A stretch of 64,000 nt of DNA from Eledone cirrhosa (lineage: Eukaryota), in assembly GCA_964016885.1 (NCBI GenBank), contig OZ024765.1, positions 13,826,001 to 13,890,000 of the forward strand, given 5' to 3'. The notes under the pieces are model-generated. The model was not told where the DNA came from, searched no databases, and was given only the letters and a program-made list of their open reading frames with translations. How positions within the stretch are numbered: position 1 is the stretch's first letter; the number at the start of each line of letters is the position of its first letter. Below are positions 22,789 through 59,983 of the stretch, in pieces. A program made the position numbers and the translations under genes.

Positions 22789-22844
22789 ACTGCCTGATGA
22801 GGTCATAGCCATTCAATGGCTATCATCGAAATATATATAGCAGT
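22789..22844 (+). ncRNA. Minimal type I hammerhead ribozyme
   Basis: ACTGC-CTGATGA-stem II(ATAGCCAT/ATGGCTAT)-GAAA-TATATA-TA-GCAGT, then AATAAA. Confidence 0.8.
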
Positions 22845-22950
22845 AAATAAAGGATTATGAGTTCATGCAATTGACTTATGTTTCGTCACTATATATATAT
22901 ATATATATACAAAATATTGACAAATGAAAAATATTCTCATAATTAAAATA

Positions 22951-23020
22951 TATACTTTATTATATATATTTCAAAGGTACTGTGTTGTTTTTTCAGTACG
23001 TTCTCATCAGACAAAATATA
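22951..23020 (-). ncRNA. Type I hammerhead ribozyme
   Basis: TATTTTGT-CTGATGA-(GTACTG/CAGTAC)-GAAA-TATATA-TA-ATAAAGTA. Confidence 0.7.
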
Positions 23021-23104
23021 TGATTAATCAGAGCACTCTTTTTTCCTGTACCTTTCCGATGGAATTACTTCACACATATATATATATATGTATAGATAGA
23101 TAGA

Positions 23105-23421
23105 TATACTATAAGGATAAGGAACAAGGATTCAGTGTTGCATCATACCATATTTAATAACACATTACATATGTTTCACTATCAATCAGCCCGAGGCAAG
23201 ATCCATTATAGATCAAACCTAACTCTGTAATCGAAAGGTCGTCAGATATGCTTAGTATACAAGTTCGTCTCCAAGCATATCTGACCACCTTTCTATTCCA
23301 GAGACAGGTTCGATCTATAATAGATCTTGCCCCGAGCTGATTGATAGTGAAACATATGTAATATGTTATTAAATATGTTATGATGCAACACTGAATCCTT
23401 CTTCCTTATCCTTATAGTATT
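23105..23421. ncRNA. Inverted repeat carrying a hammerhead pair (minus 23161-23250 with CTGACGA; plus 23276-23365 with CTGACCA variant), long stem II
   Basis: CATAT-CTGACGA-...-GAAA-CATATG-TA-ATGTG; ~145-bp arms. Confidence 0.7.
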
Positions 23422-23548
23422 ATACTCTGCTCTGAACGAGCATCAAGTGCTCAACCGGCATACCGCCTATGGACACATTTTTCTAGCAACCATACAACTA
23501 TATATATATATATATATATATATATATATATATATATATATATATATA

Positions 23549-23791
23549 TAAAGAAAAAGAGATGAAATCGAAAATGCAACTGAAGTCTTATTTTTTTTTT
23601 AAATATATATATTTATTTGGTTCCTTTACCGGTTTCGCAGTTGTGAGAAAAACCACAGACCCTCCATCTCAACTCACCTTTTGAAAAGCAGAAGAACTGC
23701 GAAACCGGTAAAGGAACCAAATAAATATATATATTTTTTAAAAAAAATAAGACTTCAGTTGCATTTTCGATTTCATCTCTTTTTCTTTATA
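23549..23791. ncRNA. Inverted repeat (~93-bp arms) with degenerate hammerhead at 23677-23714 (+)
   Basis: CCTT-TTGAAAA-GCAG/CTGC-GAAA-CCGG-TA-AAGG; core mutated. Confidence 0.55.
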
Positions 23792-24203
23792 CTTCCACTC
23801 GTGTAGGACACCTCGGTTATTTTTCATTTTGTAAAAAAAACCTCACTTTCTAATATATATATATATATATACAAATGGAAATTTAGTAAAATCAAAGTTT
23901 GGACTGTGGCCAAGCTAACGATATACAATTAGGAATGTGCAGCAAAGCACTCGATAAGGTTGTGTCACCTTAGAGTAATAACATACGTTAGATAGCTTGA
24001 CAAATTGAAAACTGCGACAGGTGAGCCCAGCCACATGAAACCAAAGCAGCGAAAAAAACCAATCAGGTATTGACAAACATATATATTTATATATATATGC
24101 ATGTGCGTGTGTGTGTATATATATATATATATATATATTTGAAGTATTTCCGTAGGAAAGGTAAAGGAAAAGAGAGTGCTCTATGTAGGCTACAGAGCTT
24201 TTT

Positions 24204-24411
24204 AGTTATGTAATAAACAACATAAGATAATTATTTCATTTACCAAAGGTTTCACGAAGACAGACGAGCTTGGCACATGTCGGCCTTCAATCATCAGAAT
24301 AATATTAATTTCATTCTGACGATTGAAGGCAGACGTATGTGCCAAGCTCGTCTGTCTTCGTGAAACCTTTGGTAAATGAAATAATTATCTTATGTTGTTT
24401 ATTACATAACT
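24204..24411. ncRNA. Inverted repeat carrying a hammerhead pair (minus 24235-24302, plus 24311-24379)
   Basis: TCATT-CTGACGA-(GAAGGCAGACG/CGTCTGTCTTC)-GAAA-CCTTTGG-TA-AATGA. Confidence 0.8.
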
Positions 24412-56058: not shown

Positions 56059-57568
56059 CTGAAATTTAGACAGAATAAATAAATAATAAACAAATAATGG
56101 TTTCTTATATAGGCACAAGGCCAGCAATTTTGGGGAGGGGAAAGTCGATTTAATCGACACCAGTGCGTGGCTGGTACTTTATTTAATCGACCCCGTGAGG
56201 ATGAAAGTCAAAGTTAACCTTGGCGGGATTTGAACTCATATCATAAATGGCCGTAACTCTATGCTGCAAAGCATGGCGTCTGACTCTTTACCGATACTGC
56301 CAATCCACCGCCCTGAACTCAATAATAATAATAATTGTTTCTACTTTTTGGCACAAGGCCAGCAATTATCCCAGTGTATTACTGGTACTTTATTTTATTG
56401 ACCCCGTAAGGGTGAAAGGCAAAGTTAACCTCGGCGGTATTAGTGCCGTAACTCGGCAGGATAAGGGCCCTAACTCTATGCTGCAAAGCATGGCATCCAA
56501 CACTCTGCCGATCTTGCCAATCCACTGCCCTAAATAAAGCCTTTACCATGAAAATACAATACTATATCATCATCATCATCATCATTTTACGTCCGCTTTT
56601 TCCCTGCTTGCAAGGGTGGGACGGGAGCTGATTCTGGTTTGATTTCTACAGCTGGATGCCCTTCCTAACACCAACCTCATTTACAGTGAGTGCTGGGTGC
56701 TTTTTTGTCGTGGCACCCCACGACCACTTTGCAGTGGAATGATATGGACCCCAGTCCCTATCATCTCATTTCTACAGCTGAGTAAACTGGAGCAATGTGA
56801 AATAAAGTGTCTTGCTCAAGGAAACAACACATCACCCGGTCTGAGAATTGAAGTCACAACCTTTCGATTGCAAGGCCAATGCTCTAACCACTAAGCCATG
56901 TGCCTCCATATATATATATATAAAATAATATAAATATTGTGAGATATTATGGGAGGTAAAGCCTTTACTGTGAAAATTCAATAGTATATATAGGGTAATG
57001 TAAATGTTATGTGAGATATTATGTGAGGTAAAGCCTTTACTGTGAAAATACAATAGTAGATATAGAGTAATGTAAATGTTATGTGAGATATTATTTGAGG
57101 TAAAGCCTTTACTGTGGAAATACAATAGTATATATATAGAGTAATGTAAATGTTATGTGAGATATTATGTGAGGTAAAGCCTTTACTGTGAAAATACAAT
57201 AGTATATATAGAGTAATGTAAATGTTATGTGAGATATTATGTGAGGTAAAGCCTTTACTGTGAAAATACAATAGTATATATAGAGTAATGTAAATGTTAT
57301 GTGAGATATTATGTGAGGTAAAGCCTTTACTGTGAAAATACAATAGTATATATAGAGTAATGTAAATGTTATGTGAGATATTATGTGAGGTAAAGTCTTT
57401 ACTGTGAAAATACAATAGTATATATAGAGTAATGTAAATGTTATGTGAGATATTATGTGAGGTAAAGCCTTTACTGTGAAAATACAATAGTAGATATAGA
57501 GTAATGTAAATGGTAAAGTTGATTAAATCGACCCCAGTGTGTTACTGGTACTTTATTGTAATACTTAC

Positions 57569-57725
57569 GACAGAGCTCCTGCGTCCTCCACTGCACAATT
57601 ACACCTTCATTAGAACATTCTAGAGCATAGGCAGAGAAAATCCTGCAGGCTCCATCTTTATTGTCGGTATCATCGCTGAAGCAGATGTAGTTGACACAGA
57701 GGTCAAACCAGCGATTGACGTCAAC
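57569..57725 (-). CDS. Exon: C8-1 (VDVNRWFDLCVNYIC...AYALECSNEGVIVQWRTQELC)
   Basis: C8 AYA.EC...WR...C motif; ttcag/gtaagt. Confidence 0.92.
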
Positions 57726-57785
57726 CTGAACGTCAATAGATAAATAAATTTATTAATAATTAACAGGTATTCATGCCAGCCCTTG

Positions 57786-57986
57786 TGATGATGTAAATGA
57801 TGATGATGATGATCAAATGATGATGGTGATGATGATGCAAATGATGATGGTGATGGTGATGATGATGATGATGATGATGATGACGATGATGATGCAAATG
57901 ATGGTGGTGATGATGATGATGATGATGATGATGATGCAAATGATGGCGATGATGATGATGATGGAGGTGATGGTGGTTATGATGAT
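57786..57986. repeat. (GAT)n microsatellite
   Basis: Direct. Confidence 0.95.
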
Positions 57987-59227
57987 TTGGCATCATCCTG
58001 CCAAAAACTTTTTTTACCTTTTTCAGGACCCAAATTAAGGGGCCCTATATATATATATATATATTATGGTGGCTGCCAACTCGTTTTCGAGTACGGCCAC
58101 TACTTTATATCCATGTAGGAGAACCCCTACCGATGCGCTGAACGAGTGTGACTTTTTAGTCCAGCCAGCGACTTGAAAACTCTGGTACAAACACTACACT
58201 TGTGACAATTATTGACACATAGTGCTAGGCCCATGGTACCATGTGACGACAAGTGCAGAGAGATCTCCAGATATAAAGCAATGCCTGTGTCGTGAAGCTT
58301 TTATAGTGAGCAAAGGCACTGCACAAAGCCAGTCCCACTCTCTTAACCAAGATGATATTTACCAAAAAGAAGAACAAGTCAACATCATTGGATACCATCA
58401 GGGTTGCAGGTGTTATATCAGAGTTTTCCTTCTCCTAGAATTCTGCCTTGACAAAGGCTAGGGGGTCATCTCTCTCGGTGATTTTGGATGGCCATTGACT
58501 CTTAAGAGCTCCTTTGCCCTTTGACAGGTTTTGTTTTTAGTCCTGCAGGATGTCCAAAGTCACCCTCCTCACCAAGAAACCTTGGTGAGGTTGCCAGTTT
58601 AGTCGCCAACGACCCAACCTTGAGACAGGTTGTACTGGGATACATGTTACCAGTAGCACCAACTGGTGACCTGACACATATATATACACACACATATATA
58701 TATATATACCGTGGAGGCATGTGGCCTTGTGTAAGATTGTTGGACTTACGATCATTATGTCGTGGGTTTGATTCCTGGGTTGTGTGTTGTGTTCTTGTGC
58801 AAAACACTTCATTTCAAGTTGCTCCAGTATACTCAGCTGAAAATGAGTACCAGCAATAGCTGGGGGTTTAAACCCTGCAATGGACTAGCATCCTGTCCAG
58901 GGGGGAGTCTTGTACTCTCAGTCGCTTCACACCATGAACCCAGCATAAGCACTGGCCTAACGAGCCTTCTATCTTAAGACAGACTTTAACCCTGCAATGG
59001 ACTAGCATCCTGTCCAGGGGGGAGTCTTGTACTCTCAGTCGCTTCACACCATGAACCCAGCATAAGCACCGGCCTAACGAGCCTTCTATCTTAAGACAGA
59101 CTTTAGACTTTTATATATATATATATATATATACACACACTTACATACACATACACACACACATACACACTTACACACACTCATACTCTCCAGACTCCAC
59201 AGTGTTAAGTAAGATCTCTTCACTCAC

Positions 59228-59341
59228 CTTCCTGTTACATTCACTAAACTTGTAAGATTTGATGCTGCTACATATTTGAATGGCGGTTTGTTCCCTGTAT
59301 TTGTTGATACACTGTCTTGGGAACCTCTCTGAAGGGATACA
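59228..59341 (-). CDS. Exon: linker/start of C8-1 ([38 protein letters not shown])
   Basis: ttccag/gtgagt; phase 0-0. Confidence 0.85.
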
Positions 59342-59905
59342 CTGGAATAGAAAGGAAAAGAACCACATTTAGGGAGACTCAGGTGTACCCCTATGATGAC
59401 ACACGCTATGTTAGTGCCCCTTCTAATTACCTCCCTTTCAATGAGATACTCAATACAATTGCTACATACTACATATATATATATATATATATATATATAT
59501 ATATATGTATATATATATATGTATATATATATATATATATATATATATATATATATATATATATATATACATATATATATATACATATATATATATATAT
59601 ATATATATATATATATATATATATATATATATATATATATATATATATATATATACACATATATATATATATATATATATATATATATATATATATATAT
59701 ATATATATATATATATATATACATATAAAGGTTTACATATATATATATAAAGTCACAGATATATATGTGTTTTGCAACGGGTCACTTTTTTGCAACAGGT
59801 CCTTTCCTTTCTAACTTGACCGCTGCCACGTCACGATTCTTAGCCATTTTTAAATGTATTCTTGGCGCGATCACTTTGGAAAATTAATTGTCTAAATTTG
59901 AGCTA

Positions 59906-59983
59906 ACTTCCTGATGAATCCGAAGCTCTAGATATCCCCTGTTATCGGATGTCTTAAAATACGGACGAAACCATGGTAGAGGT
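59906..59983 (+). ncRNA. Type I hammerhead ribozyme with extended stem II
   Basis: ACTTC-CTGATGA-A(TCCG...CGGA)C-GAAA-CCATGG-TA-GAGGT, between two (TA)n arrays. Confidence 0.72.

Follow-up and report, generated by a model that had tools for sequence, protein, structure and literature searches.

A stretch of 64,000 nucleotides from the cephalopod Eledone cirrhosa (assembly GCA_964016885.1, contig OZ024765.1, positions 13,826,001 to 13,890,000 of the forward strand; hereafter the window) was found to carry 18 hammerhead ribozyme motifs within 37 kb, 15 of them intact and 3 damaged. We consider it highly probable that these motifs are type I hammerhead folds located at the 3' ends (a pseudo-long terminal repeat, or pLTR, followed by a tail) of several families of Penelope-like elements and of one likely non-coding retrozyme, and that they were likely pasted into (TA)n tracts as short, 5'-truncated and often head-to-head copies.

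Hammerhead motifs and their conservation

All 15 intact motifs display the type I hammerhead core (C3/U3 UGA N G8/A8 A ... GAAA ... UH), three helices and an open stem I. A descriptor composed of stem I, CTGANGA, stem II (mismatches allowed), GAAA, a short stem III, TH and the returning strand of stem I gave 14 matches in the window, whereas 200 block-wise dinucleotide shuffles averaged 0.05 (maximum 1) and the reversed window had none; a stricter descriptor gave 9 matches versus 0.04 in shuffles. The comparison with dinucleotide-shuffled sequence, which had been proposed as a check in a preliminary description of the window, therefore revealed a clear enrichment. Since the word CTGANGA by itself is not enriched (30 in the window for a shuffle mean of about 24), the signal resides in the hammerhead architecture. 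An Rfam scan of the window, at E values up to 10, returned no hammerhead among the matches listed (the best 150 of 151). Rfam models may miss minimal hammerhead variants.

The 17 sites of the preliminary description proved to be hammerhead-family sequences without exception: 14 are intact, one of them with the known U3-A8 core, and 3 carry a single lesion read from the sequence (G8 changed at 23276, A9 changed at 53929 and one stem III pair broken at 40695). Thirteen of the 14 descriptor matches fall on these sites, and the fourteenth, at 35929 on the minus strand, is newly found and intact. CTGANGA is absent at site 23677, yet the site is an intact U3-A8 variant (position 3 at 23681); an interpretation of its family, D, as a permuted or half ribozyme was rejected, an intact U3-A8 core being present in 23 of the 24 family copies matched. 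Four pairs of motifs, in the foldbacks of families B, C, A and F, are the two arms of one head-to-head foldback each, so that the 18 motifs correspond to fewer insertions, namely 14 (13 for the 17 earlier sites; Table 1). The proposed spacing of roughly one motif per 2 kb agrees with these counts. As for the palindromic stem III described as frequent, 9 of the 15 intact window motifs have a perfect one, as do 36 of 76 motifs from a genome sample presented below.

The motifs were assigned to 13 families. Families A, A2, K, M and P have stem I, stem III and a C·C mismatch in stem II in common and, judged from their sequences, are one clan (the A clan), with which H has stem III and the mismatch in common. 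The families had been described as unrelated, which is consequently true only between this clan and families B, C, D, E, F, G and N. A pairing-blind search, which used the core letters and a stem III box only, recovered 101 distinct sequences of the A clan. Stem I positions 1-5 are paired in 96-100 of the 101; stem II is paired in 94-101 at positions 1-3 and in 83-98 at positions 5-10, with pair swaps, and position 4 is paired in 3 and C·C in 84. In 34 aligned variants drawn from this list, both sides change in 10 of 15 named pairs, and the covariation score reaches 0.508, versus 0.268 for shuffled alignments (a contrast inflated by relatedness) and 0.105-0.175 for slid ones. The earlier statement that stem sequences differ while pairing is kept was thus confirmed for the A clan and H by compensatory changes in helices I and II.

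Penelope-like elements and a putative retrozyme

Family A arms flank Penelope open reading frames (ORFs). An arm is present in all 16 ORF-bearing loci fetched, downstream of the ORF in 14, and a tandem spacing of 3.5-4.2 kb was measured in 4 ORF-bearing loci. The order at one locus (L226) is inverted arm with tail, pLTR, a 743-aa ORF, about 1.9 kb of non-coding DNA, pLTR and (TA)n, and the family A tail is there the 5' leader of the following unit. Partial-tandem pLTRs, an inverted 5' copy and a tail on one end are all as in endonuclease-bearing Penelope-like elements. The 743-aa ORF contains the motifs RW37-38, DKT118-120, YRDD352-355, CxCx5C601-609, CxxC699-702 and CxH726-728 and an endonuclease motif, Y..Y.G...F..R...H; the copy examined has RWR, and its GIY-YIG core contains no conserved cysteine pair. 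This set agrees with the description of the Hydra clade, as given in the accessible text of PMC8557442 (Craig et al. 2021): an RWK-type motif, DKT, a CxCx5C linker, CxxC, CxH and no CCHH in the endonuclease core. The label Neptune for family A was dropped in favour of Hydra after this motif comparison. Atlas look-alikes of the ORF have GIY-YIG or RVT_1 in part of the members, and the best named homologue of the family A protein is from Argonauta. Motifs, look-alikes and homologues, rather than a name from Pfam or PDB, thus lead us to regard the ORF as a putative reverse transcriptase (RT) with a C-terminal endonuclease, belonging to the Hydra clade.

Penelope endonuclease ends were also detected 1.1-1.5 kb upstream of families H and A2, at two loci each; the intervening DNA common to the two loci is clear for H and partial for A2. 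Upstream of family D, an endonuclease of another type occurs in one locus, which was read in detail. Families A and H are accordingly best regarded as 5'-truncated ends (pLTR and tail) of protein-coding Penelope-like elements, and families A2 and D probably have the same origin. The qualification of the whole set as non-autonomous must be given up for family A, which has an intact 743-aa ORF, and for H, A2 and D, with their upstream endonuclease ends; an ORF-less monomer is seen in family G only. In the window itself, two fragments at 48383-48672 (+) match the endonuclease end of a Hydra-type protein profile (E 2e-9 and 6e-5), with no hammerhead match nearby.

In partial tandems, family G repeats with a period of about 656 nt; its unit lacks an ORF and contains one type I hammerhead. 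Penelope protein pieces were found upstream at none of 19 copies, and no array of this family with two intact cores was seen. Family G likely represents an ORF-less non-LTR retrozyme, the single such family here.

Abundance and association with (TA)n tracts

A sample of 99 segments of 10 kb, chosen at round coordinates (990 kb of the 3.0-Gb genome), contains 76 motifs, versus 1 in reversed DNA. This corresponds to one motif per 13 kb and, by extrapolation from the 990-kb sample, to about 230,000 motifs genome-wide (bootstrap 163,000-297,000); U3-A8 matches (21 in the sample versus 4 in reversed DNA) were left out of this estimate. Every family for which a search returned a result is high-copy. 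First-look candidates, which are lower bounds and not copy numbers, amount to at least 546 for family A, 1756 for B, 1628 for C, 4447 for E, 1011 for F, 3883 for G, 87 for H, 1916 for M and 679 for N; copies of family D were taken from loci fetched for other families. The density of the window is about three times that of the sample (14 matches versus 4.9 expected; P about 0.005-0.01 from resampled 10-kb blocks, for a window chosen after the fact for its density), and the neighbouring 100-kb stretches hold 4 and 12 descriptor matches. The region thus is a local high, but not the seat of a special system, the same kind of motifs being found elsewhere in the genome.

The association with (TA)n tracts was borne out. 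A (TA)5 or longer lies at most 350 nt downstream of the cut site in 12 of the 14 window matches, versus 1107 of 3000 random points; at 31193 (family E), the link is absent on the downstream side. In the genome sample, such a tract is present within 350 nt downstream of 69 of 74 motifs and upstream of 36, for 773 and 751 of 3000 random points, respectively, and the link is therefore both real and directional. Insertion into (TA)n was found for families A and H. In the flanks of loci L053, L066, L072, L086 and L126, different hammerhead families adjoin within one (TA)n tract, like families H, K, B, D and C at 22.6-24.5 kb of the window. Clustering by nested insertion probably explains the local density. 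Loci L157, L167, L270 and L244 harbor other U3-A8 hammerhead families, one of which has several same-strand copies within 10 kb.

Element ends and a model for insertion

Two sharp 3' ends were observed per family, a short one and a tailed one: 52 and 49 of 137 for family A, 27 and 34 of 67 for F, 10 and 11 of 24 for D and 14 and 21 of 44 for C. Families B and G also have two 3' ends, in smaller or noisier sets; the count of tailed ends of G, which holds low-complexity matches, was not used. Most of the sharp ends of these six families run on into (TA)4, and in all six the short end stands on an internal TA word of 4-7 nt, for a chance of about 0.09-0.16 per family. One tailed and one short arm make up 28 of the 31 divergent pairs of family A; in the other three, the second arm runs into the ORF and has its short end beyond it, so that these pairs conform as well if the ORF-bearing unit is traced as far as its end. 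The arms diverge at 38 of 3283 bases (1.2%) within loci and at 4042 of 98648 (4.1%) between loci, which indicates that both arms come from one source. The 5' truncation points of families A, F and M in unselected loci are concentrated immediately beyond the ribozyme, about 70-135 nt upstream of the cut site. Dimers formed through palindromic stems III were rejected as the cause of the foldbacks, since the non-palindromic family C often folds back and the palindromic family H rarely does (3 of 40 places). No scars of A-to-G editing were seen in the window arms, where the alignments of A, C and D are gap-heavy.

These observations are compatible with the following scheme. The endonuclease of the element would nick both strands of a (TA)n tract, and each 3' end would pair with a short UA word of the RNA, which lies 35-290 nt past the ribozyme for the short end and 100-390 nt past it for the tailed end. 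The annealed ends would then prime reverse transcription through the uncut hammerhead, and both cDNAs would stop early and be joined head to head, leaving one short arm and one tailed arm. By analogy with published relatives, the ribozymes may cut mainly as dimers in a tandem precursor RNA, in which case single intronic copies would probably be near-silent passengers; foldback copies are predicted to be locked in long hairpins. Cleavage of hammerheads as dimers has reportedly been described by Lunse et al. (RNA Biol; summarised in PMC6765202).

Objections and alternative explanations

Several results weigh against this interpretation. Sequence searches of the 743-aa ORF in Pfam and PDB give no RT or GIY-YIG match, and the best that a profile search yields is E about 1, to retron-type RTs. 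For B, C, E, F, K, M, N and P, eight of the 13 families, no ORF link beyond single loci was obtained (0-1 upstream protein pieces per family, in short loci), with the flanks of families N, E and M outside the loci covered by this search. Position 10.1-11.1 is G-C in just 28 of the 76 sample motifs and the folds of single motifs only slightly outperform shuffles (z below -2 in 5 of 13), for which reasons many of the motifs may be weak ribozymes. As regards the proposed priming, the TA word is lost in the window copy of family C, and the foldbacks were collected with a foldback query, which biases their frequency. The Poseidon RT starts in vitro at sites without homology to the cut DNA, according to the accessible text of PMC11167929 (Frangieh et al. 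2024), while the short ends described here stand on target-matching TA words.

Among other explanations of the motifs, chance matches in AT-rich, repeat-rich DNA would account for the lack of enrichment of CTGANGA alone and for the absence of hammerheads among the Rfam matches listed, but this reading is already refuted by the shuffled window, the reversed sample and the covariation obtained from a pairing-blind search, and its probability is negligible. The motifs lie outside and between minus-strand exons with VWD, C8, TIL and LDLa domains (Pfam), in accordance with the intronic location first ascribed to them, and the ribozymes could in principle have been co-opted for this VWD/TIL gene, in intron cleavage or recursive processing. 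The local excess over the genome sample and the presence of 8 intact motifs on the gene strand would suit such a role. However, 7 intact motifs are antisense, so that no strand bias exists; half of the sense motifs (4 of 8) are in hairpins predicted to be 92-94% paired; all motifs come from high-copy families; and the window was picked for its density, the adjoining 100-kb stretches holding 4 and 12 matches. Co-option thus seems very improbable, and the hammerheads in the host pre-mRNA would be passengers.

The manner in which the copies arose can also be explained differently. The preliminary description saw in the motifs unrelated non-autonomous ribozyme retroelements, which on this view would be small retrozymes, cut by their hammerheads into monomers or circles and then reverse-transcribed, and family G, whose top matches are 95-98% identical, has the size, the lack of ORF, the partial tandems and the many first-look candidates expected from this view. 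Family H forms a 135-nt tandem array at locus L099 and has one common 5' start in 17 of 39 copies, and the eight families devoid of an ORF link beyond single loci would also fit. The Penelope ORF links of A, H, A2 and D nevertheless speak against it, and so do the 5' starts: in 1.19 Mb of unselected DNA, a start at most 3 nt from the cut site is found in just 2 of 98 copies and, when all loci are taken together, in 3 of 396 (a count in which family B is not included and apparent clusters at the reference limits of D, F and P are artefacts). With no pile-up of 5' ends at the predicted cut site in either set, the genome offers no support for cleavage, and the scarcity of copies starting there implies a template RNA mostly uncut at that site; as a general explanation, the retrozyme view is therefore rather unlikely. 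A further alternative concerns the foldbacks, which might result from self-priming (snap-back) on one strand instead of two priming events at the target. The near identity of arms within loci is in line with it, and self-priming on an antisense template has been proposed for rotifer Penelope elements in the accessible text of PMC3846280. A snap-back copy must, however, lie wholly inside the first arm, yet the longer arm at the centre is the untailed one in 15 of 22 compact foldbacks (the tailed one in 7) and, when differences below 20 nt are dropped, in 11 of 17 clear foldbacks (the tailed one in 6). In these 11, one arm holds extra centre and the other holds the tail, which favours two RNA-templated starts and makes simple snap-back improbable; a variant with self-priming on a longer antisense or tandem template may also be considered. 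Double priming at the target consequently remains the mechanism that we prefer.

Features of the window and host gene

Table 1. Hammerhead-bearing insertions and host gene exons in the window (positions counted from the first nucleotide of the window)
Feature	Coordinates	Strand	Description
Family H insertion	22601..22889	+	Intact hammerhead, C3 22794, predicted cut after 22839; (TA)n both sides; putative 3' end of Hydra-type Penelope-like element
Family K (A clan) insertion	22912..23075	-	Intact hammerhead, C3 23010; (TA)n tract common with H; ends approximate
Family B foldback	23106..23498	.	Minus arm 23106-23253, intact hammerhead (C3 23245); plus arm 23273-23420, G8 changed; tail to ~23498
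Family D foldback	23551..23853	.	Intact U3-A8 hammerhead (CCGG stem III, position 3 at 23681) on plus arm, which also bears the tail; minus arm truncated within ribozyme
Family C foldback	24140..24411	.	Two intact hammerheads (24297 -, 24316 +); U·U at 10.1-11.1; stem III non-palindromic; tail on minus arm
Family A2 (A clan) insertion with tail	25880..26096	+	Intact hammerhead, C3 25903; 5' end approximate
Family E copy 1	31085..31262	-	Classic minimal hammerhead, C3 31193; no downstream (TA)n; ends approximate
Family M (A clan) insertion	34712..35012	+	Intact hammerhead, C3 34948; short 5' inversion
Family N insertion	35800..35975	-	Intact hammerhead, C3 35929, long stem II; not in preliminary description; ends approximate
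Family E copy 2	40610..40790	-	Minimal hammerhead at 40727, one stem III pair broken; ends approximate
Family P (A clan) insertion	43512..43700	-	Hammerhead, C3 43604; stem III palindrome with one change relative to family
Family A foldback	52741..53088	.	Two intact hammerheads (52926 -, 53003 +); minus-arm tail 52741-52835; pLTR of putative Hydra-clade element whose 743-aa ORF lies elsewhere in genome
Family F foldback	53593..54180	.	Intact hammerhead on minus arm (53785); plus arm tailed, with A9 changed (53934)
Family G, 5'-truncated copy of ORF-less ~656-nt monomer	59750..60262	+	Hammerhead C3 59911, A·C at 10.1-11.1, predicted cut after 59978; long (TA)n both sides
Host gene exons with VWD, C8, TIL and LDLa domains	18696..57749	-	Pfam; gene runs beyond these limits

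In front of the window copy of family G, on its 5' side, stands an inverted piece of its own tail. The common start of family H follows (TA)n (22725 in the window) and, together with the array at L099, may point to a small non-autonomous derivative. A 12-nt word of family H at 22734-22745 (-) resembles what we take to be a tRNA-Met primer-binding site; the word is also one arm of a local hairpin, so this likeness may be due to chance.

The host gene is presumably SCO-spondin/hemocytin-like. The motif at 59911 would belong to the same gene, the upstream exon, a VWD piece, lying about 6 kb outside the window, as the order of domains suggests. Four tandem blocks of about 3.3 kb at 1-13000 (-), each with a conserved exon and a variable Thr/Pro-rich tract (frames of 187-489 aa) and with 65-bp minisatellites, form a mucin-like exon array that is probably part of the host gene.

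Other features of the window comprise an intronic tRNA-Ala(GGC)-like gene at 29065-29138 (-) (ARAGORN; Rfam 66 bits) and weaker tRNA-like matches at 14143, 16855, 17924, 39282, 55724 and 56851, which are probably heads of tRNA-derived short interspersed elements. Repeats of the window have an octopus-like appearance. A 1.24-kb AT-rich element at 27707-28944, similar to miniature inverted-repeat transposable elements, has 196-nt terminal inverted repeats that are 89% complementary and no hammerhead match. A 595-aa frame at 61785-63572 (-), of whose family fragments recur over the window, is from its motifs presumably a reverse transcriptase of the long interspersed element type.

Comparison with known systems

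The comparisons below are limited to the accessible text of the papers cited. Family A resembles the Hydra clade (Craig et al. 2021, PMC8557442) in its single ORF with RT and C-terminal endonuclease, its RW(K/R), DKT, CxCx5C, CxxC and CxH motifs, its pLTR hammerhead, its inverted 5'-truncated copy, its one-sided tail and its insertion into (TA)n, a target already reported for hammerhead-bearing Hydra elements (PMC8557442). In contrast, family A is longer (about 4.3 kb, of which the 3' region makes up about 1.9 kb, versus generally <3 kb), its tail is about 90 nt versus 30-40 nt, and copy numbers are very high here versus a small number of families there. The accessible part of that account makes no mention of a C·C mismatch in stem II such as that of the A clan.

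Minimal palindromic hammerheads are known from truncated Penelope elements, including opposite-strand pairs 100-700 bp apart (Cervera and de la Pena 2014, PMC4209133). Features common to these and to the present motifs are a helix III that is short and palindromic, a large number of consensus families in one genome, a predominance of single truncated copies, the U3-A8 variant and, in families E and F here, an additional base between 9 and 10.1. The present motifs differ in that G10.1-C11.1 is highly conserved there (28 of 76 here) and in number, thousands per genome having been reported there and about 230,000 being estimated here with a different descriptor.

Family G is similar to metazoan non-LTR retrozymes (PMC7229834; bioRxiv 10.64898/2026.07.22.740005): it is non-coding, bears a type I hammerhead and occurs as dispersed monomers and in partial tandems; the U·U at the base of helix II found in family C is known from the axolotl (same sources). 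Family G is longer than the 170-400 nt circles of PMC7229834, within the 51-972 bp of bioRxiv 10.64898/2026.07.22.740005, and, unlike retrozymes, bears Penelope-type tails and inversions. A look for RNA data containing family G listed none, and a comparison with three contig sets of unrecorded kind indicated presence only, without starts or ends. Finally, the scheme proposed above recalls Poseidon of Anolis in vitro (PMC11167929), in which two RT start sites bound the tail, both DNA strands are cut and extended, the target is AT-rich and uncut RNA is the main template.

Our literature search returned no paper on cephalopod hammerheads; Lunse et al. or supplements may list cephalopod motifs or the C·C mismatch.

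Significance

Hammerheads in truncated Penelope-like elements, opposite-strand pairs, palindromic stems III and (TA)n targeting are already in print, and the finding as stated is in this respect a rediscovery, whose added value lies in its scale and its testability. Bringing the parts together, we tentatively propose, with somewhat less than even confidence, that E. cirrhosa carries the densest hammerhead load that we found reported (about one intact motif per 13 kb, >200,000 in total); that this load is driven by double priming of Hydra-clade Penelope elements at two fixed UA words, which would explain the inverted pLTR and the one-sided tail; and that the C·C mismatch, located four pairs into helix II, has been selected as a control or docking site of these ribozymes. 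By comparison, 126,247 motifs were counted, with different descriptors, in the 28-Gb axolotl genome.

Young families whose ORFs are intact and whose ends are sharply mapped offer substrates for testing how Penelope elements build inverted insertions. At about one motif per 13 kb, most long introns of this species would carry predicted self-cutting motifs, without strand bias, which raises the question of how pre-mRNAs tolerate them.

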